Positions 30,227 to 54,720 of a DNA stretch of 64,000 nucleotides are shown here, piece after piece (the first letter of the stretch is position 1; every line of letters begins with the position of its first letter). The position numbers and the translations under genes were made by a program. Source of the stretch: an uncultured Verrucomicrobiota bacterium (GTDB taxonomy: Bacteria > Verrucomicrobiota > Kiritimatiellia > RFP12 > UBA1067); NCBI GenBank assembly GCA_946610035.1, contig CAMOCC010000001.1, positions 35,948 through 99,947 of the forward strand, written 5' to 3'. The notes under the pieces are model-generated. The model ran no database searches. It had not been told where the DNA came from and saw only the letters and a list, made by a program, of their open reading frames with translations.

Positions 30227-31033
30227 TTATCGCGCGTTATCCTCGTCGTCGTCGGGTTCCGGCGGCGTATAGTTTTCATCGAGCCACCTGTTCGCGGCGT
30301 CGATGTCGGTCCACTCTTCGCCCGTCAACTGTTCATATTCCTCCCGGGCGACACGAGCGCCGGCCTCGTTGCCGCTTTCAATGATTGAGACAAGGGACTC
30401 GAGTATCTCAAGGTCGTCGTCGCGGGATGTGATCTCGCTTACGATGCTGGTCAGCGCTTCGACGCTGTCGAGCGTCTTCATCGTCGCCTCGGCGATTGAC
30501 AATCGCAGGTCGTTGTCCTCGATGTCGCTCATTGCCAGCTCCCACTGGGATATAGCCGTGTTGGCCACATCGTCATCGGGGTCCGCCATCAACGGAGTCA
30601 GATCGGGAAGCGCCTGCGGACCGAACCACCCCAATGCCTCGATTGCCGCCTCACGAACGGCGGGGTTTGTCGACTTAAGCGCATGTTGAGCCGCGCTTGC
30701 AACAGCGGAGAAGTTGTCCTCGTCCAATGCGTCCTGGACTGACAGCACGATCTTGCGGTCGTCGGCGGAAAGTTCATCAAGAAACGCTTCAAAGCCTGGT
30801 TTTTCGCCCAACCGTGACTGTGGAATCCGCCGTTTGGAAACCACATCCTGCACTGCAGCTTTCGGGTCCTGCCGTCCCGGTTTCGGCTTGGACCGGATGA
30901 CTCGTCTGCCTGGATCGGGTTTAACCCGGCCGCTCTCGTCACCCGTCCCACGCTCCGTTTGATATAGGCATATAAGCCCTGCGGCGACGGTCGCCACCGC
31001 CAGGGCTGCCCAACTAACAGTCTTACGATTCAT
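30227..31033 (-). CDS. N-terminally membrane-anchored HEAT/ARM-like repeat protein with acidic C-terminus (paralog of 49133-50083)
   Basis: One TM helix, then repeated A.EALGW.G helical repeats and a DDDEDNAR tail. Confidence 0.5.
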   Translation of the reverse strand: MNRKTVSWAALAVATVAAGLICLYQTERGTGDESGRVKPDPGRRVIRSKPKPGRQDPKAAVQDVVSKRRIPQSRLGEKPGFEAFLDELSADDRKIVLSVQDALDEDNFSAVASAAQHALKSTNPAVREAAIEALGWFGPQALPDLTPLMADPDDDVANTAISQWELAMSDIEDNDLRLSIAEATMKTLDSVEALTSIVSEITSRDDDLEILESLVSIIESGNEAGARVAREEYEQLTGEEWTDIDAANRWLDENYTPPEPDDDEDNAR

Positions 31034-31043
31034 GTCCAGTATA

Positions 31044-32042
31044 TCAGTCGATGACGACCGGCCAGCTGGCCTTCAGTTTCTTGCAGGTTGCGATGCCTGT
31101 CGCCGTTTCGCCGTTGATGCGTCCGCTGACGTTGAACGAATACTTCTTGAGCTTTGGCTTGCCTTTCTCGATATTCGCCTCGTTGGTTGCATAGACCTTG
31201 AACGAACCGGTGAAAGTCGCCTTCTTGGAGTTGTACTTGAGTTTGAGACCGGATATGTTGGTCTTGTTCTCGTCGTCGAGGCCGATGAGTTCATACCACG
31301 TTTCGCCGTCTTCCTTGAATTTCTTGTACTTGATGCTCGGCGCCTTGCCGCAGTTCCAGCTCTTGGCGTTCGAGGTCACAATCTCGAGATCCGGAATCGT
31401 CTCGAAAATCAGGTCGTAGTCGTCGCTTGGCATCTCGTAGTCATCCGCTTCGACGGAGAAGGTATGCTGCCCGTGCACAAACGTCCCGTCGTCGTCATCG
31501 TCATCCGTCTCGTATTCGTCGGCGAATTCGTAGGCTCCCGCCTTGCCGCCGACCTCGCCGTCTGACGTAATTACCACCTCGACAGCTCCGAGGTTCTTGA
31601 CACTCGACCATGTAGCCGTGATTGTGCCGCCTTCATCGGGCGCGAATGCGGTTTTGGACGCCGTTGCGCTCTTGCCCGACGCCAGCTTGAAGGCGATCTT
31701 GACCGAAACCTTTCCCTTCTTCGACTTTTTGCTAGTCGTGATGGTTGCGAGACCTGCATAGGTGCCGTCTTCGTTCACGATGTAGGCCTGTTTCGTCATG
31801 GCCTTCGACCAGTCCGTCGTGCTCCAGCTGCCGCCCGACGACGAGCCTCCGCCCGACGACGAGCTCTCGTCTCCGCAGAACACGCAACCCGAGGAGGGCT
31901 TCGATGGTATGATGACAGGATCGTCGTCTATGACGATTTCGCCGCCGTTGCAGAACGCGCAGCCGTCGTAGACGGTCGTTTTCTTGGCCTGCGCCGCAAT
32001 CGCGACGGCGCCGAGCAGGGAGAGAAGAATCGCTTTTTTCAT
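31044..32042 (-). CDS. Secreted protein with two CxxC pairs and the shared Lys-rich C-terminal module
   Basis: Signal peptide MKKAILLSLLGAVAIAAQA. CAFC and CVFC. C-terminal LKLKYNSKKATFTGSFKVY...KKLKKYSF...GIATCKKLKASWPV. Confidence 0.6.
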   Translation of the reverse strand: MKKAILLSLLGAVAIAAQAKKTTVYDGCAFCNGGEIVIDDDPVIIPSKPSSGCVFCGDESSSSGGGSSSGGSWSTTDWSKAMTKQAYIVNEDGTYAGLATITTSKKSKKGKVSVKIAFKLASGKSATASKTAFAPDEGGTITATWSSVKNLGAVEVVITSDGEVGGKAGAYEFADEYETDDDDDDGTFVHGQHTFSVEADDYEMPSDDYDLIFETIPDLEIVTSNAKSWNCGKAPSIKYKKFKEDGETWYELIGLDDENKTNISGLKLKYNSKKATFTGSFKVYATNEANIEKGKPKLKKYSFNVSGRINGETATGIATCKKLKASWPVVID

Positions 32043-32084: not shown

Positions 32085-32963
32085 TTATTCGCCGAGAGTC
32101 TCGGCAATTTTTGCGGCAACCGCAGCTTTGACCGTTGCGGGGAATTTCTTGTAGACGTCGAGAATGGAGGTTGAGTTGCGGAGCTTCTTCGACAGCTGGG
32201 AGTTGTATTTGATCGACCACGTGCCGGACACCGCCGTGAAGTCGACGTCGCCGAATTCTGCGCAGTCGCAGAAGTTCCAGGCCGTGGCATAGTCAACTTC
32301 GTCTTCCTCGTCCTCCTCGGCGTTGCAGAACGTGCAGACGCCTTTCTTGCCGGGCGTCGTGACGGAGGGAGCCGGCATCCATCCGGCGACATTGCCCGAG
32401 ATTGTCTTGACGTAGCTCATGCAGTCGGCAAGCACAAGGTTCCCGTCCGCCTTCTCCGTGCTCAGGACAAGGGAGCCGAACCCGGCGAAGGAAAGGAATG
32501 CGTTGGAGCTGTCGCTTGAGTCTCCGATCGTCCAGGCCCCCTCGCACTTCGTCCCGTTCTGGTCGATGGCGTTGAGCAGCCGCCAGTGTATGTCCTCGTC
32601 GAAGACGATCGTGTTGGGGCTTTTCTTGTCCCAGATGACGCATCCCGCGACGATTCCCATGCTCTGGTTTATGACCGTCCAGTTGCCGAGGATGGCGTCG
32701 CAGCTGCATCCCCAGATGACGCCGTTCCAGGTCTGCGACCCCTGCGTGCGGTAGACGATCGTGCCGGTTTCGTCGACGAATGCGTTCTTGCCGGCCGAGA
32801 TGGACGACTTCTTGGCCGAAGTGGTCTTGATCGTGATCTTGACGTCGTAGACCTGTGCGGCCTTGTCGTCTTCGGCATTGCCGAACGCGGCGGGAGTCGA
32901 GCAGCAGACGCCGGCGGCGAGTGCGATTAGCATGGTGGTGTGTTTCATGGTATGTTCCTTCAT
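32085..32963 (-). CDS. Secreted Cys-rich 'IWGCDCE' family protein (paralog 1)
   Basis: Signal peptide. AQVYDVKITIKTT, VIWGCSCDAILG, SGNVAGW, CTFCNAEEDEED, SGTWSIKYNSQLSKK. Confidence 0.6.
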   Translation of the reverse strand: MKEHTMKHTTMLIALAAGVCCSTPAAFGNAEDDKAAQVYDVKITIKTTSAKKSSISAGKNAFVDETGTIVYRTQGSQTWNGVIWGCSCDAILGNWTVINQSMGIVAGCVIWDKKSPNTIVFDEDIHWRLLNAIDQNGTKCEGAWTIGDSSDSSNAFLSFAGFGSLVLSTEKADGNLVLADCMSYVKTISGNVAGWMPAPSVTTPGKKGVCTFCNAEEDEEDEVDYATAWNFCDCAEFGDVDFTAVSGTWSIKYNSQLSKKLRNSTSILDVYKKFPATVKAAVAAKIAETLGE

Positions 32964-34564
32964 TTGTTGTGTTTGGGTTTTGTCCTTGAAGCTCTGCGCC
33001 TGGACGCGGGTGGCTTTGCCGGACGGTAGACCGCGCCGTCCGTGTCCGTAATCACCGCCCCCGCGCTGCCTGCACCCGGACGGCTCAGGCGCTTGCCGTC
33101 CTCGAAGACGAAGACGGGCCCGCCATCGTTGGCAGCCTCTTCCCGGAGGAATCCGTCTTGCGTATTTTTCTCGCTCCGGAACGCCTTGCGGCGGACGAGA
33201 CGGATGTTACCATGGCTTGAAATGGTAATCTCGGAATTGCCGTCTTCCGCAACGAATTTTCCTGTGGCCCATTCGGGAAGCGGCTCGACGCGAAACAGCA
33301 CCCGCCGCGGTACGCGCAGCCCGCCGGTTCGCTGCGTGAATGTGAATGTCGCGGTATAGGACCCCGGTTTGGTCGCGCACCCGGAAAGGACGCGGCCCTC
33401 GGCGTCGCAGGAGAATCCCGGCGGGATGCGCGCAGCTTGCAGGCGCACGTCGTTCGAAACGCCTCCAAGCGCGAATGTGCGCCGCACGCCGCATCGCAGG
33501 GCGATCGCCCCGTCCCGCATTCTCGGAACGTTCCCGTCTTCCAGCAACGCGAAGGCAAGCTCGCTCGCGAACCTTGCATCGGTTTGCGTCGGCTTTGCCG
33601 CGCGGTACTGCGCGATAATAGGACAGGTCGCGATCAGCGTCCGTGTGTTGTCGTTTGTCGGCGTACCCACGGGAATGTCGCGTACGACTGTGCCGTTGTC
33701 GGCCGTGAACGTCAGCGCATAGTCCGGCGAGGAGAAGAACGGCAGTATGACGCCGTCCTTCTCCTCGGGGTACCCTGTTACCGTCGTGAGCGGCGTGTCG
33801 CCGGCGCGGAAACGGTAGGCGGATGACCACGGGTGAAGCTGCGGCCCGGGCGTTTTGTGCTGCGTATCGCTGTGGCCTGCGCCGAAAAGGTGCCCGATTT
33901 CGTGCATCAGTGTGTGGCGTTGTTCGATTGCATCGATCCGACAGGCGCAATAGGCCCTCTCGGAGAGCGCGTCCAGATCGCCGGCGGCCAGCTGGTCGTG
34001 GTAGATGGAAGTGGCGTAGCCGTAGATGTTGGGTGTTTTGCTGGTCGTGAGGATGGCGACGATATCGGCATGGCTGGCATCGCGCGCCGCCCGGATGTGT
34101 TCGGCCGTCTGCGCATCGAGAGCTGGCGTCGCACCCAGTGTAGGGGCAAAAGCCGCGACGATTTCCGTTAGCTCATGCGCGCCGAAATCCAGCGGCGAGA
34201 CGTCCATCACGTCCGCCAGGCGGAACGTGAAGCGCCGGTCGATGCCCGTGTACGCCAGCGATGCGTTCAGATCGTCCACACACGCCTTGGCGTAGCCTTC
34301 CGTGGCGTGTCCGGCGGCTGCGAGATGATTCTGTGCGGACGCATCGAACACGAGTAGAACGTCGACCACATTGGTCTCCGTATCCCCGCCGTACCAGTTC
34401 GGCGCGAGAGGCAATGCCGCCGCCTGCGAACCGTCAGATTCCGGACGTCGGGCCAGCGTCCAGTTCTCCGCCGCGCACAGACCGCCTGCCAGCAAGACTG
34501 TGGTTAGAAGCGCGCCTTTCACGGCACCTCCTTTCTGGCGGGTTCTAGCACCTTGGAAATCCAT
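32960..34564 (-). CDS. Secreted metzincin-type zinc metalloprotease (possible GTG start at 34522)
   Basis: HTLMHEIGHLFGAGHSD (HExxHxxGxxH). Confidence 0.65.
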   Translation of the reverse strand: MDFQGARTRQKGGAVKGALLTTVLLAGGLCAAENWTLARRPESDGSQAAALPLAPNWYGGDTETNVVDVLLVFDASAQNHLAAAGHATEGYAKACVDDLNASLAYTGIDRRFTFRLADVMDVSPLDFGAHELTEIVAAFAPTLGATPALDAQTAEHIRAARDASHADIVAILTTSKTPNIYGYATSIYHDQLAAGDLDALSERAYCACRIDAIEQRHTLMHEIGHLFGAGHSDTQHKTPGPQLHPWSSAYRFRAGDTPLTTVTGYPEEKDGVILPFFSSPDYALTFTADNGTVVRDIPVGTPTNDNTRTLIATCPIIAQYRAAKPTQTDARFASELAFALLEDGNVPRMRDGAIALRCGVRRTFALGGVSNDVRLQAARIPPGFSCDAEGRVLSGCATKPGSYTATFTFTQRTGGLRVPRRVLFRVEPLPEWATGKFVAEDGNSEITISSHGNIRLVRRKAFRSEKNTQDGFLREEAANDGGPVFVFEDGKRLSRPGAGSAGAVITDTDGAVYRPAKPPASRRRASRTKPKHNK

Positions 34565-36378
34565 CCGGGAATGTAGAGTTCCGCGCCGGGAACGATATCG
34601 ACCCAGGTCCTTTCGCGCCCATACTGCGTATCGAACTGCGCGGCGAACTCGCCAATCGCAAGCCGGACTTCCGAGCCGGACGACAGGGTGTACGGAACGG
34701 CATCAGGCGCAAACGGCGGCGAGAGAAAGATCGTCCGCCGCGCATGGCAGTAGGCTCCATCGCCCAGATGTTTCGCACGGTGCTTGAGATAGCGCGCCGC
34801 GCCCCTACCGGCAGCCACAAGGCGATCGACGGCATTGGGGAGTTCGTCCGGATTGTTGACGACGAGCACGGAACCAGCATCCGGCGTCGCATGGATTCCA
34901 TCGCGCAGCTCATGCCCGAAGCTGCCGATGGCGTCGCCTGCTAATACTGCGTCGTCACGAATGATGGCCGTATGCACGTCACCACGACCGATGCGAACCG
35001 TGCCGCCATCACACGCAACGGGAATCTCGCGGGCGTCCGCCTGACGGCGACCAATGGCTTCGAGTGCCAGAACCGTGAGGCACCCCAAAACGACCGCGAT
35101 GGCGAAAAGGAGGGCGAGACGCCGACGGGTCGCGCCGCTGCCGCCCTGTGCCAGCTCTTTGCCGACGACGACAAGCACCGCTCCGCCGCAGAGCGCCGGG
35201 AGAATCCACAACGTCGGGAAGATGCCGACGGTGCTGAACCAGAGCGAAACGGCAAACGCACTCCAGACGGCCAGCGCAACCTGGACTGTTTTGCGTCGTG
35301 CAAAGGCGAAAAGGAGCATGAACAGCATCAGCCAGGCCGACACATAGGCGCAGCGGAAGACGCGTCCGTACTGCACCATCCAAGTGAGATGGCTGTTCAC
35401 GAGATAGTAGAGACGGTGATTGTCGGAAGGGGCCTGGAACCAGTCGCAGTATGCGCGGCCGGGTTCATCGCCCCAGCCTTCGGGCGCAACCGCCATCATC
35501 TCGGGTGCTGCGGCCCAGCATCTGAGCCGTTGCACGTTGCCTTCATCCACGGAAAGCAGGTTCGCGCCAAAACGTCCGTCCGTCATCTTCCCGACGGCAA
35601 AAAGGGCGACACCTCCCAGAAGAACGGTAAGCATGGTGCCCAGCAGGACCCTTTTCCCCCCAAGACGCGGAACGAAGTGCACAAGCGCCGTGATGGCGAT
35701 GCCGAGGATAGACGCGATAAACGATCCGCGCGAGCCGGTTAGAATCAAGGCGACGAGCGCGGCTGCCGAGGCTCCCAGACACGCTAGGCGTACACCGCAC
35801 CGCCGCCAAACGAGGGCGAATGCGGCAAACAGCGCCGCAATCTCCGCAAAGAGCGTGCCGGCGGCATTGGGGTTGAAGTATCCGAGTCTGAGACGCGCGC
35901 CGTCACGCCACCAACTGGCTTTTTCCGCCTTGTCCCGTTCGGCCGAACGCGGACGCCAGAGCTGCTGAAGAGTCGGCGGCCTCTTGGGATGGGCGGAAAG
36001 GAAGGCGAGATCCTTCGCCTTCCGGTTTTCATCGCCTTCACGCCGGAAACTTCTGAGTCGGCCTTGCGTGAAGACAAGCGTCGCCGCCCCGGCATCAAGA
36101 AAATTGCGATGATGAACGTCGATGCGACCATCCGATTCCTCCATTGCCGTGGCTTCGTGCGACTGCCATGTGCGTTTGCGCGCGCCGGGGCGCGCGTCGA
36201 AGGACATGACGGGGATCGACGCATACTTGAGGACAAGTCGGTCCTTCCCGCCCGGCGCCAGATAGAAATCCGACACGCCTGCCGCGGTCCCTTCGCCCAC
36301 CGGGATATCGTATCCGAAGGCGGGAAGCGCGGCAAGCGCAAGGCAACTCAGGATCTTTCTGGCGCAAGAACCAATCAT
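34519..36378 (-). CDS. Wzy_C-domain (O-antigen-ligase / PglL-like) polytopic membrane protein
   Basis: Many TM helices. LILTGSRGSFIASILG resembles the Wzy_C TxSRG motif. C-terminal VPGAELYIPGW is shared with the paralog at 46911-48680. Confidence 0.55.
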   Translation of the reverse strand: MIGSCARKILSCLALAALPAFGYDIPVGEGTAAGVSDFYLAPGGKDRLVLKYASIPVMSFDARPGARKRTWQSHEATAMEESDGRIDVHHRNFLDAGAATLVFTQGRLRSFRREGDENRKAKDLAFLSAHPKRPPTLQQLWRPRSAERDKAEKASWWRDGARLRLGYFNPNAAGTLFAEIAALFAAFALVWRRCGVRLACLGASAAALVALILTGSRGSFIASILGIAITALVHFVPRLGGKRVLLGTMLTVLLGGVALFAVGKMTDGRFGANLLSVDEGNVQRLRCWAAAPEMMAVAPEGWGDEPGRAYCDWFQAPSDNHRLYYLVNSHLTWMVQYGRVFRCAYVSAWLMLFMLLFAFARRKTVQVALAVWSAFAVSLWFSTVGIFPTLWILPALCGGAVLVVVGKELAQGGSGATRRRLALLFAIAVVLGCLTVLALEAIGRRQADAREIPVACDGGTVRIGRGDVHTAIIRDDAVLAGDAIGSFGHELRDGIHATPDAGSVLVVNNPDELPNAVDRLVAAGRGAARYLKHRAKHLGDGAYCHARRTIFLSPPFAPDAVPYTLSSGSEVRLAIGEFAAQFDTQYGRERTWVDIVPGAELYIPGWISKVLEPARKEVP

Positions 36379-36390: not shown

Positions 36391-39300
36391 CTATTTGATT
36401 TCGACCGGGAAGCTTCGCTTCGCGGTCTTTCCTCCAAGGCGATCCGAGAAAAGGCAATGGCCGAGGCCGAACGCCACATTCTCCATTTCAATCAGCTCGT
36501 CGTTGTCCTCGCCGCAGTCGCAGTCGCTGAACCAGCCGCGTGTGAGTACGCCCGTGAACTTCGCCGATACCCGGGCCTTGCCTTCGAACGAGAGTGTCGA
36601 TTTCCCGGTGAAGACGCCCGTTGAACGGTTCAACTTGAACGAGAACCCTGTCGCCTTCGTTGCGGTGGCGCTGGAATCCGTGATGGTCACAACCGCGCCC
36701 TCGCCGGCCACATGCATGAGCTCTCCCCAGGCCGGACTCGGCGCGACGGACTCCGTCACGGGCGCAAACTGCAACGCCAGCGTTTCGTCGTCGATGCCGA
36801 CAAGCAGCGAATCGTTCTTGTCATACCAGCTCCCGCGTACGGCAAAGGTGCGCGTAAACGATCTTCCCTTGGTTTTATTCGTCCAGACGGCCTCGGTGCC
36901 GTCCTGCGCGATGACGGCGCGGGTCGACGGGGCGTCCCCGGCGTTGCGCCGTACCTTCAGCACAGCCGCGAACGTTTCGACGCCGACCGTGCGCAACACG
37001 GGCACAATGCCGAAGTTGGCGTCCACCCACGTTACGCTGGACGACCCCGTCAGCGTCTTGCCGTCGGGAAGGTGGATCGTGTATTTAAACTGTCCTTTCT
37101 TTTTCGCCGTCGTCGTCGCGGCCATCTTCAGTGTCATGACGGCATCTCCTGCCGGTTCTGTCGTCGACGCGTTGTCGACAGACGGAAACGCCACGGTGTA
37201 TACGCCGGAAAATGCGCCATAGCTCTCGGCGAGGCCGCATTCACCCGAAGCAAGTGTGCTTGTGCCGTCGTCGACTTCAGCGGCCACAACGCCGTCTGCT
37301 CCCATGACCAGCGAAAGGGTGAAGTTCTTCTTGGTCAAAAGGGCGGTCGCGGTGCCGTCGGCGGCTATGTCGTCGTCCCACTTGCCCGTGAACAGGGCAA
37401 GACTGCCTCCGCCCGCCGAATACTTGGCAGAGATCCTTCCGTTCTTTTTCAGCGACAACGCAAGGAGCCCTTTGAGCGTCGTGCCGTCGGACGCATAGAG
37501 CGGCAACGTCGTCGTCAGGGCCTTGGATGTCCAGTCGTTTGTGAACGGATTGTCTATGGCTTTGCGCGAACCAGCCAGCGTGTAGGCCGTGACGGTGCTC
37601 GCGGCGGACGCGTCGGCCGCAAGCGTCCCCGAACCTTCGCCCACGACCGAAACGTAATAGTTGCCTCCCGTGGATGATATGACGCCCGTCGCGCTCACGC
37701 CGTCTGAAAGGCGTCCCGTGGCAGTCGCCACCGTGCGCGCCGTACCGCCGACGACTTCTATGATGCTGACGGTCGCCGTTGTGTTGGCGTCGCTGCCGCT
37801 GACGGTGATTGTCTGCGAAGCCGCCGCTGCGGAAGTCGCGGCAAGGCGGTATGTGTCGGCGAGGTCGAGCGCTGAAAGCGTCGCGGTCGTTGCGGTGTCG
37901 CCCGTGAACGAATCATTCGTCGTCTGCCAGGAACGGTTGTCCAGATCTCCGTCGCCGTTTGCGCCCATCTCCACCAGCTCCGTGAAACGCTGGAGGTATG
38001 CCGCATTGAACTCGGAAGGACCAATCGCGTCGAACGTCTCGAACGTCCCCGCGAGTTTGCCGTCGCGCGTCAGCGCGAAGAAGTTCGGGATGCCCGTGCG
38101 GTTCTGGTTGGCGCGGTTCGGGTCGTTCCAGCCCCCGTTCAGCGTGTTCTGGCCGACAAGCGACCGGTTGCGGTTCAGTGTCGCTTGCGCGGCGGCATCC
38201 GAGACCATGTGGCGCGAAAGGTAGCCGGCGCCGCTCTGGTAGCGTTCGAGCTCGTTTGTCGCCAGCGTGCCGCGGCCCGAGATGTAGCCGTCGCTAGTGC
38301 GGCCGACGACGCGCGTCAGCAGGCAGGCGGAATTCGTCGTATTCGGGAAGTTGGGCACGTCGATGTCGACGAGAATAACCTTGTTGTCAACGGCCCATTC
38401 CTTGAAAGCCGTGGTTTCCAGTACATGTTCGTCGGTCATCACGCAGTCGGGGCACCAGAGTGAACCACTGGCCACGGCCATCAGGCGCGAATCGGGTTCG
38501 TTGCGGTATTTTTCCATCGCCACGTCCAGGTCCATCGTCCATTCGCCGTAATCAAGCGTCGCGGCGGTGCGCTCGCCGATGAAGAAGGGGTTCTTCGTCG
38601 AGTTCTCCCGTTCGCCCACGAGGAAGATGCGGACGCGTCCGCGCGCGTTCCCGGTTTCGTCCAGGAGCGCGAGGGCGATCGCGCCGCCGGCTTTCGCCGA
38701 TTCCGGCACGGCGACGCGCACGGTCCGCGCGGTTTGATTCTTCTGCCAGGCGACCGTCGCGCGCTGTATTTCCTGGCCGCCATAGGTGGCCGTTAACGTG
38801 TTCGTGGCCGCAAAAGCAGCCGCCGCAGCGTCACGCACGAGCGGAACATCGACGTATTTCGTGAAACCGACCTCGGCCTCCAGTCGCGCGTGTTCATATT
38901 CGGACGTAAACAACAGATCGCCGCCGAGATAATCGGGAATTGGCGCGTACCCGGCGAAGAAGGACTCGGCGCGGCTCTTGAGCGTCGCGGCGCTGTCGGT
39001 GGTAAAGCTTGTCGCCGCCACGCCGCTGGCCTTGGGCCAGTAGAGGCAGAGGTACGGATATCTCGATGGCGTCTTTGTCGCGGTGCCGGCCGCTTTCCCG
39101 GCGAAATTCTTGACGACGGACGTGCCGTCCGGATCCTTGCCGTTTTTCCCGAGAACGAAACAGAACAGATAGCCGGACGCGTCCATCCACTGCGTAAACG
39201 ACGACGATTGCACGTCCGCTTCCAGCGCCGCGCAGTGGCTGCAGCCGGTGTTCGCCCAGAAGACCACGAGCGGACGATGCGCCGTGACGGCGGCGTTCGT

Positions 39301-40645: not shown

Positions 40646-40683
40646 AGCCTGAAAAGGGGAATCGAGAAACCCCGATTCCCCCT
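40646..40683 (-). terminator. Rho-independent terminator after the left 'IWGCDCE' gene
   Basis: Minus-strand AAGGGGGAATCG-gggtttct-CGATTCCCCTTTT. Ends only ~12 nt before the next ATG. Confidence 0.6.
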
Positions 40684-40712
40684 TTGGCGTTCAGTAAGAA
40701 CGTATGGTTGGA

Positions 40713-43358: not shown

Positions 43359-43383
43359 GCTTCCGTGGAACAGGGCGGGTTTC

Positions 43384-44440: not shown

Positions 44441-44464
44441 TCGGACATACCTGTAACGCAGCTA

Positions 44465-44500
44465 AGAGGGGTGATGGCTGATGCTATCCCCCTCTTTCAT
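44465..44500 (+). terminator. Rho-independent terminator after the right family gene
   Basis: AGAGGGG-tgatggctgatgctat-CCCCTCT followed by TTTCATTT. Confidence 0.6.
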
Positions 44501-46883: not shown

Positions 46884-46910
46884 AAGGATTGTTGAAAGGC
46901 GAAAAGCCGC

Positions 46911-48680
46911 ATGTCGATTCGCAATACAGGAATTGCCATCGTTCTGCTCGGCAGCGCATTTTGCGCTGTCGAGCTTGAAGCTTCTCCTGTATGCCCCCGC
47001 TTTGTCCAGACAAGCTCGTTCAGCTACAAGATGGTGGAGCCAGACGGGTCCGTCGTGCGGTTCGTCCAGGACGAAGACGATCCGTCCGGTTTGGTTGGCG
47101 AGGGCCCCTGGGCGGCGGAGCGGACGGGCTCCCAGATATTGGCCATGGCCGAGGACCAGAATGGGCAGCGCGGCTTTCTTTTCCAGGAGGGTTTCCTTGC
47201 AGCAAGCCTTGAGGACGGCATCGAGCATCGCCATCAGCGTCCCGCAACGAGGGATCCGGACCCGGCGGCATTTTCCGACCTTTGGGCGCATGATTCCGCA
47301 GTGGAGAGCCTGGGTGCTCCGCCCGACATCTGGAGTCGCGGAGAATACAGGCTGCGCCTCTGGCTCGAGAACCCCAACGTCACGGCCGTTCTTTTCGCGC
47401 AGTTGGCGCTGTGCGGCCTGGCGGCACTGTTGGCGGCGGGACGGGGCGTAAAGGCACTTGGATTCCTCGTTTCGGCAGCGGGAATCGTATGCCTGCTGCT
47501 GACGAAGTCCCGCGGGGGGCTTCTCGCATTCGCCGCGGGAGCGGCGGTGCTTGGCGGATTGCGCTTGAGAAGCCTCCTGAACGTCAAGTTCCTCGCTGTC
47601 GCAGGTGTCTTGATTATTGTCGCCGTGGCAGGCGTGTTGGCCGCTGGCTCAGGCGCCCGCTTTACATCGGAATTTCTCAAACAGGATCAATCCAACAGTC
47701 GACTTGCAATCTGGAGCGAAGTGCCGAGGATGATGGTTGACGCCCCTGGTGGATGGGGTGCGGGGCAGTCCGGGCGTGCATACGTCGACTGGTATCAGAA
47801 GGATAGCACCTGCCTGTTGAAGAATATGATCAGCTCCCATGTGACGAAGCTGGTCGAATATGGGTGGATCGGTCGATTCGTCTACATCTTTGCATGGTTT
47901 TGCGTCATAGCGCTTTGCGCGCTCTATTCCGTTCGAGGCGGAACTCCTCTTGCATGCTCGCTATGGACTGTGTTGTGCGCGGCGGCATGGCTGAATCCGG
48001 TCCTTGAGTCCTTCGAGCCTTGGGTGATGCCGGTCGCATCTTCGCTTTTGCTGCTCGCCGGTTGTCGGCGATACGCTGGTCGACCCGCTGTCGCCATGAT
48101 TGTTCTCTCTGCGATTGCCGCCGCATCATCCCTTGTCGCAGTCGCCTTCGTTGGAGCGCGCTCTTCGAAATCGACCGACGTTTCCGTACGTGCCGATGGT
48201 GGTGCCGTCATCGTAGGTGTCGGCGGGGACAGTGCTCCTTCGACTTGGATCGTCGACGACGACTACACGCTCCACGGAGGCTATTGGTGGAGGCTGGGCC
48301 GCGATGTGCGTGCGTACGTAGGGGAGACTTCGACATCCGTCGGTTTTTCACGGACGTTGGACGATGTCCCTTCCAAGGTCGGGCGTCTGGTGCTCGTAGG
48401 CGGGCGCGCATTGGAATACGTCCGTCGCTGGACGGACGACAGGGCGTCGCTTCCGATTTCCGACGAACTGGTGTTTGTGTCCCCGAAGCTTTCGGCGCTC
48501 GACGTACCAGGAGATCTCGCCAGGACAAAGGGTTTCCGCATGTACCAGGGAGCGTTTGCGGCGCGGCTGGCACCTGCGTCCGAAACTGATGCGCCATGGC
48601 TTGAAGTCGTGCCGGGGGCGGAGCTTTATCTTCCCAATTGGCTGGATTTATCAACAAAAACAATCCGAAAGGAGAAATGA
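46911..48680 (+). CDS. Wzy_C-domain (O-antigen-ligase/PglL-like) membrane protein (paralog of 34519-36378)
   Basis: LLLTKSRGGLLAFAAG (Wzy_C motif). C-terminal VPGAELYLPNW. Confidence 0.6.
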   Translation: MSIRNTGIAIVLLGSAFCAVELEASPVCPRFVQTSSFSYKMVEPDGSVVRFVQDEDDPSGLVGEGPWAAERTGSQILAMAEDQNGQRGFLFQEGFLAASLEDGIEHRHQRPATRDPDPAAFSDLWAHDSAVESLGAPPDIWSRGEYRLRLWLENPNVTAVLFAQLALCGLAALLAAGRGVKALGFLVSAAGIVCLLLTKSRGGLLAFAAGAAVLGGLRLRSLLNVKFLAVAGVLIIVAVAGVLAAGSGARFTSEFLKQDQSNSRLAIWSEVPRMMVDAPGGWGAGQSGRAYVDWYQKDSTCLLKNMISSHVTKLVEYGWIGRFVYIFAWFCVIALCALYSVRGGTPLACSLWTVLCAAAWLNPVLESFEPWVMPVASSLLLLAGCRRYAGRPAVAMIVLSAIAAASSLVAVAFVGARSSKSTDVSVRADGGAVIVGVGGDSAPSTWIVDDDYTLHGGYWWRLGRDVRAYVGETSTSVGFSRTLDDVPSKVGRLVLVGGRALEYVRRWTDDRASLPISDELVFVSPKLSALDVPGDLARTKGFRMYQGAFAARLAPASETDAPWLEVVPGAELYLPNWLDLSTKTIRKEK

Positions 48681-48690
48681 CATGAAGAAG

Positions 48691-49155
48691 ATACTGTTCG
48701 CGGCGTTTGCTGCGTTTGTCGCATGCACGGGCCTTGCGGCTAAGTCGGTGACGCTGTACTACGGCGACGGCGACACCCTGGAACCCGAAGACAGCGTTAT
48801 GTTCTCCCTGGATGATTTCCCGGAGGAGATCAACGGCTATCCTGTCCTCGACGAGTATCTGCCCAACGGCGTGGAGCTCACATGGACCGGCAAGAAGTTC
48901 AAGGCTCCCAAAAAAGGCAAGGTGAAGTACAGCAAGAGCGAAGAGGACTTCATTACGACAAACGACGAGAATCCGTGCGGACTTTCCGTGAGCTATTCCA
49001 AGAAGAAGGGGATCATCAAGGGCTCCTTCAAGGTCTACTGCCAGAAAAGCGAGAAGAAGCTGAAGTCGTACACGGCGAAGTACAGCGGCTACCTGGGGGG
49101 GACGATCAGCGTCACTATAAAGAAATCCACCGTTGCGGAGGCCAGCATTGACTAA
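48691..49155 (+). CDS. Small secreted protein consisting essentially of a signal peptide plus the shared Lys-rich C-terminal module
   Basis: KVKYSKSEEDF...GIIKGSFKVYCQKSEKKLKSYTAKYSGYLGG. Confidence 0.55.
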   Translation: MLFAAFAAFVACTGLAAKSVTLYYGDGDTLEPEDSVMFSLDDFPEEINGYPVLDEYLPNGVELTWTGKKFKAPKKGKVKYSKSEEDFITTNDENPCGLSVSYSKKKGIIKGSFKVYCQKSEKKLKSYTAKYSGYLGGTISVTIKKSTVAEASID

Positions 49156-50083
49156 GGTAGTCTATCAGAAAAAGGGCAGCGGCGGCAAAGGCCGCAATGC
49201 ACGAGTCCGGCTGCTTGTCGGCGCTGGCCTGTTGGTCTGCGCCGCGGCGGCGGCATTGCTTTGGTTCGTTTCCAGCGGCGAGTCGGGCGTGGATGAACCG
49301 CGTCCGGCCCGCGTAGCGAAGGCCAGGATCAAGCATGGAGACGGACGGGCGCGCGATGCGGTGCAAAGCGTTCTCGACAAAAACAAAAATAAGCTGGGGA
49401 AGGATAAGTCCGGCAGAAAGTCGGACAAGCCCAGGCCTCTCGCCGACGAATTCGCTTCGTTCTCCCCTGCTGACAGGGCCCTGGCCCAGGCGGTGCAGGC
49501 CGCCTGGGACGCAGACGACTTCGAGGCGGTAGTCGAGGCGGCCGACAAGGCGCTTGGATCCGCCAATCCCGACGTTCGCGAGGGTGCCGTGACCGCCCTT
49601 GGATGGTTCGGCGCAAAGGCTCTTCCCATGCTCACGTCCCTCATGGCGGACCCTGATGAAAACGTCAGCGAAACAGCCATCAACGAATGGGAGCTCGCCC
49701 TCAGCGACGTAAACGACCTCGACTTGCAGGTCGAAATCGCCACGGCGGCTATGTCCACCGTCGACAATCGCGACGCACTGGAGATGATCGTCACGGAAAT
49801 CACGGCGCATGACGATGAAATCAAGGTGATCAACTCCCTGATAGACATCATGGAGAGCGGTAATTCCGTAGGCGCGGAGATCGCCCGCGAGGAGTACGAG
49901 GGACTGACGGGCGAGGAATGGACGTCGGTGGAGGATGCGGAGGCGTGGCTCAGGGAGAACTACGTGCCGACAGACGAGGAGGGCGAGCGTCGCGTCGCCG
50001 AAATGAAGCAGGCCGAGGCGGAGCGGACGGGGGGCGAGCGCGAAGCCGACCTCCCCGTCGATGAGCCGGAAGGCGACGAGTAG
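49133..50083 (+). CDS. Membrane-anchored HEAT-like repeat protein with acidic tail (paralog of 30227-31033; start uncertain)
   Basis: TM helix LLVGAGLLVCAAAAALLWFV. ALGWFGAKALPMLTSLMADPDENV repeats align to the paralog. Confidence 0.5.
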   Translation: MRRPALTKVVYQKKGSGGKGRNARVRLLVGAGLLVCAAAAALLWFVSSGESGVDEPRPARVAKARIKHGDGRARDAVQSVLDKNKNKLGKDKSGRKSDKPRPLADEFASFSPADRALAQAVQAAWDADDFEAVVEAADKALGSANPDVREGAVTALGWFGAKALPMLTSLMADPDENVSETAINEWELALSDVNDLDLQVEIATAAMSTVDNRDALEMIVTEITAHDDEIKVINSLIDIMESGNSVGAEIAREEYEGLTGEEWTSVEDAEAWLRENYVPTDEEGERRVAEMKQAEAERTGGEREADLPVDEPEGDE

Positions 50084-50134: not shown

Positions 50135-50944
50135 ATGAAAAAGATGATGGTGATGGCGGCGTTTGCCGTCTTTGGGTCTATCGCCTGGGCTGATGCGCAG
50201 GTCTATGAGATGCAGCTCACGCTGAAGACTACGCAGACGAAATCCGGGAAGGTGAGTTTCGTCTCCTGCGACTGCGGAGTGGACGAAGCGACGCTCTATC
50301 GCAAGCAGGGGACGGTGAAGATCAAGGGCCTCATCTGGGGATGCGACTGCGAGACGATCGCCGAGCCTCAGATATCCGATGACGGAGCCAGCCTCTCCGA
50401 GTCCGGCTATGGCTACATCTTCTGGAACGAGACGACGAAGAAGCCCCTCAACCTCAAGTTCGAGTGGGAGTTCCTCAACCGCATCGACAAGACCGCGACC
50501 AAGTCCGAGGGAACCTGGAAGCTCTCCGATGACGATGACACGTTTTGCCTTTACGGTTCCGGATTCGGCACCGTGAAGGACACGACCGTCAAGGAGCCGA
50601 TATGCGAACGCATAGCCACCTGGATCCCGTCCATGAACGGCAACATCGCCGGTTGGTCGACGCCCGGCGCCATCGTCACCGTAAAGGCGACGAGCGGCGA
50701 GTGCTCCTGGTGCGAGAAGGTCGAGGGCACGGAGGAGGAGACCGAGTCCGCTAAGGGCTGGTCCCTTTGCGCTTGCGAAGAATCCGACGAGCGTACCGCC
50801 GCATCCGGCACATGGAAGCTGAAGTACAACGCCAAGGCCTCGAAGGCTCTTTCAAGCACGAAGAAGGAAATTCAGAGAGTGACCGAGGTCTACAAGTTCC
50901 CCGCTTACGTCAAGCGTCTCATCGAAGGCGGAGAAGAGGATTGA
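50135..50944 (+). CDS. Secreted Cys-rich 'IWGCDCE' family protein (paralog 4)
   Basis: AQVYEMQLTLKTT, GLIWGCDCETIAEP, NGNIAGW, CSWCEKVEG, SGTWKLKYNAKASK. Confidence 0.65.
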   Translation: MKKMMVMAAFAVFGSIAWADAQVYEMQLTLKTTQTKSGKVSFVSCDCGVDEATLYRKQGTVKIKGLIWGCDCETIAEPQISDDGASLSESGYGYIFWNETTKKPLNLKFEWEFLNRIDKTATKSEGTWKLSDDDDTFCLYGSGFGTVKDTTVKEPICERIATWIPSMNGNIAGWSTPGAIVTVKATSGECSWCEKVEGTEEETESAKGWSLCACEESDERTAASGTWKLKYNAKASKALSSTKKEIQRVTEVYKFPAYVKRLIEGGEED

Positions 50945-51011: not shown

Positions 51012-52820
51012 ATGAACAGTTGCAGAACCAAGATGACCGGCCTCGCCGTTGGAGTCTTCCTCTCGGTTGGCGCGTTTGCGTTCGAGTACAACGTGACCAA
51101 ACCGGCCATCCGCCCGCGTTGGAGCGGAGCGGTGGCCGGCGAGTGGACGATGGACTACAAGGCGGCCCTTGAAAAGGCGCAGAACGAAGGCAAATGCACA
51201 CTTCTCATGTTCACCGGAGCATGGTGGTGCCCCTATTGCGAGACTGGAGAGGAGAAGGTGCTCACGGCGGCCGCATGGCAGAAGTACGTGGAGGAGAAGG
51301 GCTTCTACCTTGTGGAGTTCGACTACCCCTACCGTTTCCCAGTCCCGGAGGGGCAGGAGTGGAAGGGCACGAGTCCCCTCGGCGACGGCTGGGGATTCCA
51401 GTGCTGGCTCTACGACGCCGAGTATCTTGCCGAGAACGGGCTGACCGCCGAGGAGGGCCTGGCTGCGATTCAGGAGCGCTACGACTTCCAGGACGCAAAC
51501 GCCCTGCCTGGCAGCACCGTCAACACCATCAGCCGCTACGACGGCGGCACCATGGACCTTCACAAGATCGGCTACATGACGCTGATCGCGATCCTGCCCG
51601 ACGGCACCGAGGCGGGACGCGTGTCCTTCCCGTGGTACAAGTCGTCGTCCGTCTCCATCGAGGAGGCCTGCGACTATGTCATCACGAGCCTCGACACGGT
51701 GATAGACGCAGCCATTGAGGCGCAGTGCGGACTCTGCTCCGACCCCGAGGCAGGCGGTTTGGACGGAACCGCGCGGGAAAAGTACGACGGATGGATCACC
51801 GATGCCTCCGGCGGCGTCGTCGGCACAGTCTCGTTCACCGTTGTAAAGGCGAACAGGAAAGGCGTCATGAAGGCGTCTGCAATCGTGTCCCAGTCCGGCT
51901 CGCGCAAGCAGTACAAGGCGACGATTACGGATGGTTACCACCCCGTCAAGTTCACCAGTTCCCACAATTCATACGGGACCTTGAATGTTCGCTTCGGCTC
52001 GTTGGGGCTGACAGGCACTTTGACAGACGAATCCGGAACGTATGAGATCAAGGGCGGACGCGATGTCTTCTCCGCGCGCGACGCGGAATCGAAGAAGTCC
52101 GCTGAATCCCTGGCACAGGGCGTCTGGAATGTTGTAGTCCAGACCGCGGAGCCCCCGACTGCGCTGGCGGCGGGCAACGGATACTTGTCCGTCGAGATCA
52201 AAGGACGCGGCCGCGCCTCGGTAAGCGGCGTCCTTGGCGATGGAACGAAGGTCAAGTTGAGCGGACGTGTGATAGTCGGCGAAGACGGTGTCAGCTGCCT
52301 TCCTCTGTGGGTCGCCCCCTATTCCCGTCGCCAGGGTTCGATCGGCTGCGTATTGTGGTTCAGGGACGGAAAGCTTTTCAACGTGAATTCCATTACGCCC
52401 TGGACCTCTGGCGGCGAGAACCCGTTCAGCACGACTTGGAAGGCCGTTTTCTCCCATGCACCCGGTTATGAACTCGAATCCGACGAGATGGAACTTGACA
52501 TCGAGGGCCTGGAGGAGGGGACCCTCATCAAGGGCAAGCCCGTTGTTGTCGACCCTGCGGACGACGAGGTGTCGGTCAAGGGCGGGATACGCTTCCGCGG
52601 ATCGTCCACCACCGGCTTTTCGGGGAAGATCACCCCGAAGAACGGTGTGTTCAGCGGGAGGATGACGCTGTTCGTCGATGCGGGCAATGTCAAACCGAAG
52701 AAGGTTTCCGCCAAGATGACAGGTGCCGTCATGTCGGGCACCGTCTACGGATCGCTCCTGGTCCCCAAGGTGGCCTCCTGGCCGCTCAAGATCTCATCCT
52801 GCAACGCCTGTAGCGACTGA
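51012..52820 (+). CDS. Secreted protein with thioredoxin-like WCPYC module and the shared Lys-rich C-terminal module
   Basis: LLMFTGAWWCPYCETGEEK. C-terminal GFSGKITPKNGVFSGRMTLFV...KKVSAKMTG. Confidence 0.55.
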   Translation: MNSCRTKMTGLAVGVFLSVGAFAFEYNVTKPAIRPRWSGAVAGEWTMDYKAALEKAQNEGKCTLLMFTGAWWCPYCETGEEKVLTAAAWQKYVEEKGFYLVEFDYPYRFPVPEGQEWKGTSPLGDGWGFQCWLYDAEYLAENGLTAEEGLAAIQERYDFQDANALPGSTVNTISRYDGGTMDLHKIGYMTLIAILPDGTEAGRVSFPWYKSSSVSIEEACDYVITSLDTVIDAAIEAQCGLCSDPEAGGLDGTAREKYDGWITDASGGVVGTVSFTVVKANRKGVMKASAIVSQSGSRKQYKATITDGYHPVKFTSSHNSYGTLNVRFGSLGLTGTLTDESGTYEIKGGRDVFSARDAESKKSAESLAQGVWNVVVQTAEPPTALAAGNGYLSVEIKGRGRASVSGVLGDGTKVKLSGRVIVGEDGVSCLPLWVAPYSRRQGSIGCVLWFRDGKLFNVNSITPWTSGGENPFSTTWKAVFSHAPGYELESDEMELDIEGLEEGTLIKGKPVVVDPADDEVSVKGGIRFRGSSTTGFSGKITPKNGVFSGRMTLFVDAGNVKPKKVSAKMTGAVMSGTVYGSLLVPKVASWPLKISSCNACSD

Positions 52821-52854
52821 TGGACGTCTGAAACAAGGTGGGGTGGGGGGAAAG

Positions 52855-54720
52855 ATGGACATTATAAACAGACTTGGATGTTTGGCGATCACGGCCTTCG
52901 CAGTTGCTGCGCAGGCGAAAGTGTCGGCTGACGTGCCGCGATGTGGACTTCTGCATCCCGCCCCGGAAGCGCTGGAAGCGCGGGAGACGGCCTTGGATTT
53001 GTCGGGCCGCTCCCGTCTGGCTCCGGCTGTTGCAAAGGAGACGCGTCTCGATGTAATAGACCTTCTGCTGGGCTACGACCTTTCTGCGCAGCAGTGGCTC
53101 AAGGAGAACGGCAAGGGTTCTGTCGAGGAACATGCGAAGGCGCGAGTGGAGGCCCTGAACAATTGCCTCAATGAGTCCAAGATCACGGACTTTACATTCC
53201 GCCTTGCAGGTGTTGTTCGCATAGAAGACGATGCGACGAAATACAAGATCGAGTCCGCCGGTATTGTTGACTACGTGACAATCCTCTCCGGGAAACTCGT
53301 CGCGGCGGACGGAACGGTGGTCGCGACCGGCCCATGGGCGGCGGTTCCCAAGATGCGCGACAGCGTCGGTGCCGATATTGTGTGCGTTCAGATCTCTTCC
53401 GGACGGCTCGGGATGGTGGGACTTGCCTACGGTCTCGAAAACAGTTCTGTGCGCAATTACGCCGCCAACCCGTCGCTTATCGCGAAAGCGGGAGATTGGG
53501 GGTATTGCGTGTGCAGCATAGACATGGAGGACTACGACTACACGCAGCTCCATGAAATAGGGCACGTCATGGGATGCGGACACGCCGATCCCGACATTGC
53601 CGACGTGGGAGGCTTGCCTATAGGCCCGCAACTATTCGACTATTCCGCCGCATACTACCTCTGGTATGCAGAGGACGCGGCATATTACACGATAATGGGT
53701 TACAACTACGGCGGGAAGCGTCCTGACGGGTCGCTCGTCGCGACGGACTTCTTCAAACCGGCTCCGATATTCTCGTCCCCCGAATTGACTTACGGGGGGA
53801 AAGTGGCCGGGGACGCCTTGCACGATAATCGAAGGACGCTGATGACCGTCTATCCCTACGTTGCGCAGTTCAGGGTTTCAAGACAGGATGACGACACCGA
53901 GCCGGAGGAAGAACCCGATCCCGGGACGCGCATCTTCAAGTCGGAGTACCGGCCTGCAAAGGCGGTGAACGGCGCATCGCCGTATGTCGGCGCCGTTACG
54001 CTTGACGACGAGGTTGTGGCCGTTGTTTCGCTCAAGTGCGGAAAGGCGGGTACGTCAGGCAAAAAACTCGGAATCGGCAAGCTCTCTGCTTCTGTGACGG
54101 GGTTTGACGGCAAGACGAAGTCGTCGAAGGCGGTAGATGTGAAGTGCGGCTACGATGCGGCCGCGGCTCTTGAAGTCAAGGGCTGGGGCACGTTGAAGCT
54201 TACTCTCGGAGGCGAGGGCTTCATCGGTACGCTAAGGGCGCCCGACGGCAAAGTTTATGAAGTCAAGACCGCGAATGTCGGCGGAGAATGGCCTTCAAAG
54301 GCGACTTATGCGACGGTTGAGTTCAACGACCTGTCGATGATCCCCGGCGAGCCGCTTGCGGAGCTGCTTCCGACCGGGGAGAATGGAGCTGCCATTGCCG
54401 TCGTGAACGGAAAATGGAAGTTCGCCAAGGCGGCGACAGTCAAATACGCCAAGGCCAAAGGCGAATCCGTGAAGTCCCTGATTGTCGATACAGGCAGGCA
54501 GGGCGAGAAGTCAAATCTCTCGGCGATGAAACTTAGCTATAAGCCTAAAAACGGCTTGATCAAGGGGTCTTTCAAGCTTTACTCCCTTCAAGGCTCTGGC
54601 GACAAGGCGAAGTTGAAGAAATTCACCGTCAAGGCATCCGGTCTGACTGTAGGGCAGATAGGACATGGCGAGGCGGTCCTGAAGAGTCCGTATGCTCAAT
54701 GGCCGATGACAGTGCAGTAG
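52855..54720 (+). CDS. Secreted metzincin-type zinc metalloprotease carrying the shared Lys-rich C-terminal module (paralog of 32960-34564)
   Basis: YTQLHEIGHVMGCGHAD (HExxHxxGxxH). C-terminal MKLSYKPKNGLIKGSFKLY...KLKKFTVKASG. Confidence 0.65.
   Translation: MDIINRLGCLAITAFAVAAQAKVSADVPRCGLLHPAPEALEARETALDLSGRSRLAPAVAKETRLDVIDLLLGYDLSAQQWLKENGKGSVEEHAKARVEALNNCLNESKITDFTFRLAGVVRIEDDATKYKIESAGIVDYVTILSGKLVAADGTVVATGPWAAVPKMRDSVGADIVCVQISSGRLGMVGLAYGLENSSVRNYAANPSLIAKAGDWGYCVCSIDMEDYDYTQLHEIGHVMGCGHADPDIADVGGLPIGPQLFDYSAAYYLWYAEDAAYYTIMGYNYGGKRPDGSLVATDFFKPAPIFSSPELTYGGKVAGDALHDNRRTLMTVYPYVAQFRVSRQDDDTEPEEEPDPGTRIFKSEYRPAKAVNGASPYVGAVTLDDEVVAVVSLKCGKAGTSGKKLGIGKLSASVTGFDGKTKSSKAVDVKCGYDAAAALEVKGWGTLKLTLGGEGFIGTLRAPDGKVYEVKTANVGGEWPSKATYATVEFNDLSMIPGEPLAELLPTGENGAAIAVVNGKWKFAKAATVKYAKAKGESVKSLIVDTGRQGEKSNLSAMKLSYKPKNGLIKGSFKLYSLQGSGDKAKLKKFTVKASGLTVGQIGHGEAVLKSPYAQWPMTVQ

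Follow-up and report, generated by a model that had tools for sequence, protein, structure and literature searches.

A candidate recombinase-driven switch between two paralogous envelope operons in an uncultured Kiritimatiellae bacterium

Introduction

Why would a bacterium maintain two diverged versions of the same set of envelope genes, reading away from each other on either side of a recombinase gene? This arrangement is found in a stretch of 64,000 nucleotides (nts), hereafter the window, from an uncultured Verrucomicrobiota bacterium (Kiritimatiellia; assembly GCA_946610035.1, contig CAMOCC010000001.1, positions 35,948 to 99,947; G+C ~62 %). Cassette A consists of seven tightly packed open reading frames (ORFs) on the minus strand, from 40639 down to 30227, and cassette B of eight ORFs on the plus strand, from 44533 to 54720. 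A sequence-only reading had described them as mirror-image surface/secretion cassettes flanking a switch, and the ORFs of both were found at the coordinates it gave. Between the cassettes lie two leader genes, S1 on side A (40713..41720, minus strand) and S3 on side B (43655..44440, plus strand), which enclose the gene of the recombinase, S2. The names on homologues of the window proteins are those of Kiritimatiellae genomes from rumen and gut metagenomes; to our knowledge, these bacteria are abundant and largely uncultured there, and we know of no earlier work on their cell surface and its variation.

The structural description of the locus, i.e., its gene content, paralogy, repeats, recombinase, promoter motif, hairpins, co-conservation and the existence of a haplotype with cassette B only, is near-certain. 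As to what the locus does, the reading that we favour, with a probability of roughly 60 %, is that an invertible promoter selects between two diverged versions of an envelope operon, which would amount to phase or antigenic variation.

The recombinase segment and its promoter

Two perfect inverted repeats of 215 nts (41775..41989 and 43383..43597, 100 % complementary), 1393 nts apart, bound a 1.4-kb segment that contains the recombinase gene. Homology between the two sides extends outward from the repeats at 92 % and 82 % identity through the 5' untranslated regions (5' UTRs) and signal-peptide codons of S1 and S3, and the right repeat doubles as the 5' UTR of S3. Folding of the ~300-nt 5' UTR that the repeat forms gave no sign of unusual structure (z -0.98). 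Within the segment, S2 (42107..43216, minus strand) is an intact 369-aa ORF for a tyrosine recombinase (Phage_integrase PF00589, 58.5 bits for a cut-off of 27.1) and has its own promoter-like site. More than 200 homologues of this recombinase were found, many on contigs of 1.3–3 kb, which is expected because such segments are bounded by repeats. A core motif, CCTAGGCC..GGACAnnnTGTCC, lies at the inner end of the repeat; among related loci, here designated by L numbers, it is complete in L018, and only its CCTAGGCC part occurs in L026 and L027.

Just inside the right repeat, a predicted sigma-70-type promoter (43316..43352, plus strand; CCCCC-TTGCGC-18 nts including TGg-TACAAT, with an A/T tract upstream) points outward to S3 and cassette B. 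The same design, TTGnnn-17/18-TGnTAnAAT with an upstream C-run and A/T tract, recurs in L026, L027, L017, L006 and L012, where it either marks the edge of the homologous segment or precedes an S gene. Moreover, the window itself contains a near-identical promoter-like sequence, CCCCCTTGCCAAACGGGGGCAAAATGTGGTAAACT, at 11904-11938 (plus strand), upstream of rpsL (11975-12358). The combination of C-run, -35 box, G-rich spacer and extended -10 suggests a strong promoter form typical of the lineage. Since this sole promoter reads outward to B and no comparable promoter element was found at the opposite end of the recombinase segment, the assembled sequence would correspond to a 'B on' state. The G+C content dips to 0.53–0.56 over 42000-46000, which covers the switch and the start of cassette B, compared to 0.62–0.66 in the flanks. 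Consensus promoter and terminator scans inside the cassettes gave hits at chance level only, and an Rfam search of 30000-57000 gave no match.

In the switching model, an envelope operon specific to Kiritimatiellae is present in two anciently diverged paralogous versions, which lie head-to-head around the recombinase segment. A single strong sigma-70-type promoter at the edge of the segment would at present drive S3 and cassette B by way of the right repeat; inversion would turn it toward the left repeat, and thereby toward S1 and cassette A. Each side would open with a small secreted Cys-rich beta-barrel protein (S), followed by a hairpin that would let only part of the transcripts reach the accessory genes. 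The latter are predicted to provide a PrsA/SurA-like foldase, thioredoxin-like (Trx) proteins with CxxC motifs, a Wzy_C protein, a metzincin, a second beta-barrel, proteins with a common C-terminal domain (CTD) and a membrane-anchored HEAT-repeat protein. Given that every gene product is either exported or bound to a membrane, the same envelope module would appear on the cell in one or the other of two versions (29–49 % identical). We infer the inversion, the functions of promoter and read-through, the surface location and the product of the module from sequence; candidates for this product are a coat, a display set of adhesin and protease, or a disulfide-linked layer.

Gene content of the two cassettes

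The domain types that the sequence-only reading had named hold up in profile searches. Parvulin-type peptidyl-prolyl isomerase (PPIase), Trx-like, Wzy_C, metzincin and HEAT proteins of both cassettes match Pfam families, mostly above the curated cut-offs (in bits: Rotamase 21.7, Thioredoxin_7 27, Wzy_C 31.7, Reprolysin_5 27, HEAT_2 27.7). NCBIfam and PDB sequence searches agree with Pfam on a PrsA/SurA-like parvulin, a DsbH-like Trx fold and a Mep72-like metzincin, while PDB profile and sequence searches were empty for the IWGC family (see below), the CTD, Wzy_C and the metzincins. The catalytic motifs are intact in the Trx folds (CSHC, CPDC, CPKC, CPYC) and in both metzincins (HEIGHxxGxGH). 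Every cassette product carries a signal peptide or transmembrane (TM) segments, and for this reason the label 'surface/secretion cassettes' is a reasonable one. In what follows, counterparts in the two cassettes are compared by pairwise BLASTP.

Each cassette starts with a PPIase gene: A1 (39491..40639, minus strand; Rotamase 37.2 bits) and B1 (44533..45585, plus strand; Rotamase 43.2 bits and SurA_N_3, with matches to PrsA chains in the PDB), 29 % identical (E 7e-11). Both had been taken for lipoproteins. This is correct for A1, which has a lipobox (LLVAGC), but the signal peptide of B1 is free of Cys and B1 is thus not a lipoprotein.

The second gene encodes a Trx protein in both cassettes. 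A2 (36391..39417, minus strand) is a secreted protein of 1008 aa with two Trx folds (CSHC, CPDC; Thioredoxin_7 35.4 bits over two stretches). It matches two proteins of cassette B, B2 (E 7e-12) and B6 (E 4e-11). B2 (45609..46883, plus strand) contains one Trx fold with an intact CPKC, which stays below the Thioredoxin_7 cut-off (18.5 bits), and ends in a CTD (E 4e-40). B6 (51012..52820, plus strand) combines a DsbH-like Trx fold (CPYC; 30.2 bits) with a divergent CTD half. The match to B2 covers the N-terminal Trx module of A2 (residues 25-128) and that to B6 later stretches (residues 291-358 and 923-961), as if a B2-type N-terminus had been fused to a B6-type body. DsbH is the best named match for these Trx folds (NCBIfam NF043050, E 1.6e-10 for B6; PDB 2ju5). 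However, the scores of 22.9 and 41.3 bits are far under the NCBIfam equivalog cut-off of 190, and the cassette proteins are therefore not DsbH itself.

The third gene, A3 (34519..36378, minus strand; Wzy_C 38.4 bits, ~10 TM segments) or B3 (46911..48680, plus strand; 52.3 bits), encodes a polytopic membrane protein of the O-antigen-ligase superfamily. The two share 29 % identity over 527 aa (E 9e-42), have 7 to 11 hydrophobic segments and gave no match to solved WaaL or PglL sequences.

From here on gene order differs. The metzincins A4 (32960..34564, minus strand; HEIGHLFGAGH) and B7 (52855..54720, plus strand; HEIGHVMGCGH) are 32 % identical (E 3e-25). A4 reaches 27.7 bits against Reprolysin_5, i.e., at the cut-off, and has an Ig-like region with a He_PIG match and a weak Mep72 match; B7 remains below the cut-off (20.1 bits) and ends in a CTD (E 5.5e-32), which A4 lacks. 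The Cys-rich beta-barrel proteins named after their 'IWGC' motif, A5 (32085..32963, minus strand; IWGC profile E 6e-83) and B5 (50135..50944, plus strand), are 33 % identical (E 6e-37), in agreement with the earlier placing of one such protein in each cassette. The membrane-anchored HEAT-repeat proteins are the most similar pair (49 %, E 1e-67): A7 (30227..31033, minus strand; HEAT_2 42.2 bits), the last gene of cassette A, has one N-terminal TM segment, and B4 (49133..50083, plus strand; 33.5 bits), the start codon of which is uncertain, has a TM segment as well. Two further genes encode CTD proteins. A6 (31044..32042, minus strand) is secreted, with two CxFC motifs and a Ser/Gly linker in front of the Lys-rich CTD (E 1.5e-38, residues 187-332), whereas the 158 aa of B4a (48679..49155, plus strand) comprise only a signal peptide and the CTD (E 4.5e-68). 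The Lys-rich C-terminal module is therefore present in both cassettes as had been noted, but cassette A has a single clear carrier, A6. B8 (54777-56819), located just downstream, was considered as a further member of cassette B and rejected: it is without counterpart in related loci, and its G+C content at third codon positions (GC3) is housekeeping-like.

Age of the duplication

Overall, the identities between cassette A and B paralogues range from 29 to 49 % (E 7e-11 to 1e-67). The proposal that gene order has been shuffled applies only to part of the cassettes, as the order PPIase, Trx, Wzy_C at the start is the same in both while the other genes are rearranged. The proposal that the duplication is old and not recent fits the sequence comparisons. 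B1 is 44–50 % identical to orthologues in other species versus 29 % to its cassette A counterpart, B3 38–40 % versus 29 %, and S3 51–70 % versus 26 % to S1. Since the B genes are closer to genes of other species than to cassette A, the two cassettes separated long ago, as branches of a single operon family, and do not stem from a recent duplication.

Conservation in other genomes

The gene types also co-occur, and in many relatives are syntenic, outside the window. From the contexts of IWGC and recombinase homologues, the gene set was found to recur in more than 10 rumen and gut Kiritimatiellae contigs. B-type synteny (S3-like, PPIase, B2, Wzy_C, B4a ... IWGC, B6, HEAT) is seen in L006, L011, L013, L019 and L027, and A2-type cassettes occur in L001, L007, L009, L012, L014, L016 and L018; in L015 an A2-type Trx protein adjoins a homologous recombinase. 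In two other genomes, L017 and L027, mirror-image S-PPIase-Trx cassettes flank a repeat-bounded recombinase segment just as in the window. Inverted repeats flanking homologous recombinases measure 198 nts at 91 % identity in L017, 154 nts at 95 % in L019, ~126 nts in L027, 46 nts in L026 and 26 nts in L018. The recombinase segments of relatives also hold genes of the kind found in defence islands (AAA-ATPase_like/PDDEXK_9, Abi_2, STAND NTPase; L017 8127-9896, L019 8124-9917, L018 7686-9936).

The minimal core that recurs across genomes consists of S, PPIase and a Trx-fold protein (plus HEAT). Wzy_C and metzincin genes are optional (L018, the left side of L027, L017), the Trx proteins of some genomes contain Calx-beta, He_PIG or PPC domains as fusions, and some related cassettes also contain MauE/DoxX and a C10 peptidase. 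The MauE/DoxX-family membrane protein genes adjoin Trx-fold genes inside cassettes (L015 15129-15611; L019 504-944, where the copy is also beside a Peptidase_C10 gene), a hint at dedicated disulfide chemistry. In L016 (6888-9905), the first gene on the side of the recombinase opposite S-PPIase encodes a HEAT-like membrane protein, and genes for a Ser/Thr kinase and an ECF-type (extracytoplasmic function) sigma factor come next. Judged from this context, the HEAT protein may act in signalling and not in structure.

The small size of the core matters for the interpretation of the module. The sequence-only reading had seen in the cassettes a dedicated assembly system for one disulfide-rich, possibly glycosylated structure. 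With only S, PPIase and Trx (plus HEAT) conserved and Wzy_C and metzincin optional, an assembly line for a disulfide-rich glycosylated structure is retained here as a tentative and rather doubtful option. Somewhat less probable still is that the cassettes are interchangeable sets of secreted effectors (proteases, redox and binding proteins) that serve feeding or adhesion in the manner of phase-variable nutrient-acquisition loci, with the PPIase acting as a general foldase. The intact metzincin motifs of A4 and B7 and the optional nature of Wzy_C and metzincin across loci would be in line with this, as would the fact that elsewhere the S-PPIase lead-in precedes giant adhesin-like proteins (Calx-beta, He_PIG, leucine-rich repeat (LRR) or Flg_new) and a C10 peptidase. 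Nevertheless, S, PPIase and Trx-fold protein (plus HEAT) are kept in very different cassettes, and the recurrent CxC/CxxC motifs suggest that the components cooperate and are not independent cargo.

A natural haplotype without cassette A

In three independent assemblies of the same species (L037, L040 and L041; 96–99 % nt identity), neither cassette A and S1 nor the left repeat is present, and the recombinase gene is largely missing. In this B-only haplotype (L037 1-6968; L040 2930-3300; L041 7473-8046), window position 30188 is joined to a remnant of the recombinase gene made up of its first ~55 nts and a 58-nt internal piece (30188 | 42939-42996 | 43162). Beyond the remnant lie the promoter, the right repeat, S3 and the complete cassette B. 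The junction is identical in L037 and L040. The dual-cassette form was seen in one assembly of this species. The B-only strains are predicted to be devoid of a functional recombinase, with the promoter fixed toward cassette B. The haplotype thus shows that cassette A is dispensable, that cassette B is the core copy and that the dual-cassette switch is polymorphic in the population.

Could there be no working switch at all? B would then be a constitutive core, while cassette A, S1 and the recombinase would form a ~13 kb accessory block that some strains lost or never gained, and the inverted repeat would be merely the shared 5' region of two paralogous leader genes. The three assemblies that carry Hexapep-S3-B1 and so on without cassette A speak for this explanation, as do the single orientation observed and the presence of close orthologues in other species for B-type cassettes and not for cassette A. 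However, a shared 5' region does not easily account for a repeat that is 100 % identical over 215 nts when the adjoining 5' UTR and signal-peptide sequence is at 82–92 %. The recombinase ORF is intact and has its own promoter-like site, and the layout of repeats, recombinase and dual cassettes, together with the core motif, is found again in other genomes. Furthermore, the recombinase remnants retained in the B-only haplotype indicate that it comes from a recombinase-bearing ancestor. We therefore regard this explanation as unlikely.

Several points nevertheless weigh against the switching model. No contig of this species with a promoter facing cassette A was found, and the promoter faces B in the one dual-cassette and all three B-only assemblies. 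The B-only haplotype shows that the switch is dispensable, and it may even be decaying in some lineages. The promoter and terminator assignments come from consensus and conservation arguments only, and an extended -10-like element, TGATAATAT, located 8 nts before the start codon of B1, could allow independent, possibly leaderless, expression of cassette B. Lastly, the roles of the S/IWGC proteins and of the CTD remain putative and unproven, because structure searches with models of IWGC and CTD return only generic small beta-barrels.

A metagenome scan with the recombinase for the A-facing orientation returned other species and the B-only haplotype. Both orientations of the recombinase relative to S3-type genes are seen across species only, the S3-type gene being next to the 5' end of the recombinase gene in the window and L013, and next to its 3' end in L026 and L027. 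A contig of 1,453 nts (L021) was discarded as evidence for the alternative orientation; it breaks at the repeats, as any assembler's contig would.

Leader genes and hairpins

Both leader genes encode secreted proteins of the IWGC family. S1 (IWGC profile E 1e-90) has an acidic C-terminal tail and is 37 % identical to B5, whereas S3 is more divergent (E 1.5e-48); its orthologues (51–70 %) sit directly upstream of B1-type PPIase genes in L011, L013, L019 and L027. Each S gene is followed by a terminator-like hairpin, at 40652..40685 (minus strand; 13-nt arms; -31.3 kcal/mol, z -5.2) between S1 and A1, and at 44464..44496 (plus strand; -31.3 kcal/mol, z -3.5) between S3 and B1. The succession of S gene, G+C-rich stem-loop, short T-rich tail and PPIase gene is present at all 11 junctions compared (two in the window and nine in other loci), and the position of the hairpin is kept although the stem sequences differ. 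In the window, the PPIase gene starts 12–45 nts beyond the hairpin. Operons that express a major structural gene above its accessory genes have this layout.

An asymmetric scheme, proposed by the sequence-only reading, in which the switch controls S1 and S3 and, by read-through, cassette A only, B being expressed from its own promoter TGATGATAAT, is very unlikely: an extended -10-like TGnTAATAT ending ~8 nts before the B1 ATG is compatible with a leaderless transcript and no comparable element precedes A1, but the hairpin layout applies equally to both cassettes, with the same folding energy at the two junctions, while TGATGATAAT is absent from the orthologous S3-B1 junctions of L011 and L013 and is not reported by a standard consensus scan.

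Two protein families without annotation

Within the window, the IWGC family and the CTD are confined to the two cassettes and S1/S3. None of the 102 homologues of B5 has a Pfam domain on record, and the few names given by the sources are all 'hypothetical protein', four of them from Kiritimatiellae metagenome-assembled genomes. An AlphaFold2 model of B5 (predicted local distance difference test (pLDDT) 84) is a closed small beta-barrel. A stretch near the C-terminus of A2, WFSDCDCGED, resembles the IWGCDCE signature of the family.

The CTD is much more widespread and was found in 1,265 protein clusters. In the cassettes it is carried by A6, B4a, B2 and B7, with weaker matches in B6 and A2; the model of B4a, which consists of little else, is all-beta (pLDDT 89). 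It ends at most 5 residues from the C-terminus in 138 of the 150 top clusters. Its carriers are mostly adhesin-like (LRR_5/Flg_new) proteins and proteases (C10 and M12 peptidases), plus others. Giant LRR proteins with a CTD adjoin a HEAT_2 gene, Bac_transf, an ABC-type polysaccharide exporter and a pyruvyl transferase in L038 (1772-25727), and in L039 (5686-14287) such a protein directly follows a secretin gene cluster. A common origin of IWGC and CTD was considered and dismissed, profile-profile comparison having found no homology beyond the signal peptide. Lys makes up 8.5–15 % of the module; given the range of its isoelectric point (6.6 to 9.8), binding of an anionic glycan by these lysines is only a weak lead.

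In its behaviour, the CTD resembles a lineage-specific sorting or anchoring domain, although no known family can be assigned: the curated Pfam and NCBIfam models of such domains, among them the type IX CTD, gave no match. The type IX secretion CTD is a C-terminal sorting domain of Bacteroidota. Similar to it, the present module is an all-beta domain of ~125 aa at the extreme C-terminus of unrelated secreted proteins (BspA-type LRR adhesins, C10 and metallo-peptidases), with a gene of the O-antigen-ligase family nearby. One could thus speculate that the CTD is the address tag of a sorting or surface-attachment pathway of Kiritimatiellae that has not been described, and that each cassette is a phase-switchable kit for a disulfide-cross-linked, glycan-anchored coat. 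Besides the beta-barrel protein of the coat, such a kit would include a foldase of its own and disulfide catalysts, and a Wzy_C-type ligase would attach the tagged proteins to an envelope glycan. We consider this proposal, taken as a whole, quite improbable.

Neighbouring glycan genes

Cassette A ends 53 nts away from a convergent cluster predicted to function in glycan or phosphoglycan synthesis (18345-30173, plus strand), which encodes two GT1 proteins, an APH and GT10 fusion, a kinase-like protein, Glyphos_transf, LicD and a Hexapep acetyltransferase. As in the cassettes, GC3 in this cluster is below that of housekeeping genes. Glycan genes (Bac_transf, GT2, GT4, GT8, ABC exporter, pyruvyl transferase) also adjoin related cassettes or module-carrying proteins in other genomes. 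That the Wzy_C protein is linked to a surface glycan would fit these neighbourhoods but is not proven by them.

Comparison with known systems

By analogy, the closest relatives of the locus in terms of design appear to be the sap system of Campylobacter fetus and the invertible promoters controlled by tyrosine recombinases. In the sap locus, as reportedly described by Dworkin and Blaser in 1996 (Mol Microbiol 19:1241, cited in PMC4902306), S-layer variation is brought about by a single promoter on an invertible segment. In both cases one promoter on an invertible segment lies between oppositely oriented paralogous surface-protein genes, such that inversion would select the paralogue, and the inverted repeats are formed by the conserved 5' ends of the paralogous genes. 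However, sap inversion is mainly RecA-dependent, whereas the segment described here carries its own tyrosine recombinase, and each side of the latter is a 10-kb operon of 7–8 genes instead of a single S-layer gene. The proteins are also unrelated, and the present system is known from sequence, in one orientation.

Invertible promoter switches with tyrosine recombinases include E. coli fimS with FimB/FimE and surface and capsule loci of Bacteroides (see PMC10403206, PMC8748976 and PMC6083910). Inverted repeats, a recombinase of the Phage_integrase family, an outward promoter (predicted here), control of envelope operons and a gut-associated host bacterium are common to these switches and the present locus. 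Most of them, however, turn a single operon ON or OFF, while the present one would toggle between two paralogous operons; their repeats have ~10–30 nts, against 215 nts that double as 5' UTR; and here the recombinase is carried inside the segment. The features that set the locus apart are hence the whole-operon toggle, the 215-nt repeats acting as 5' UTR, the internal recombinase, the uncharacterised protein content and a lineage without described switches. A literature search on phase variation, invertible elements and surface proteins of Kiritimatiellae/Kiritimatiellota found no report, and one on invertons and Verrucomicrobia found general inverton surveys only.

A more distant lead comes from Chlamydia. 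The chlamydial outer membrane complex is cross-linked by disulfides, and DsbH is a periplasmic reductase. Both lineages belong to the Planctomycetes-Verrucomicrobia-Chlamydiae (PVC) superphylum, and in both Cys-rich exported proteins are encoded together with DsbH-like Trx folds. However, no homology to MOMP, OmcA or OmcB was found, and unlike DsbH the Trx folds of the cassettes are N-terminal modules of large multidomain proteins.

Significance

The locus provides a conserved, testable model of what may be a recombinase-driven toggle between two complete envelope operons in Kiritimatiellae, and the natural haplotype that lacks cassette A, S1 and the recombinase offers a ready comparison for the contribution of the switch in vivo. 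It also defines two sizeable families without annotation, the S/IWGC beta-barrel proteins and the CTD, which hundreds of adhesin-like proteins and proteases carry. Should the CTD indeed be a tag for sorting or anchoring, the surface proteins of this lineage could be predicted from sequence, and the tag would indicate a so far undescribed route of secretion or attachment.

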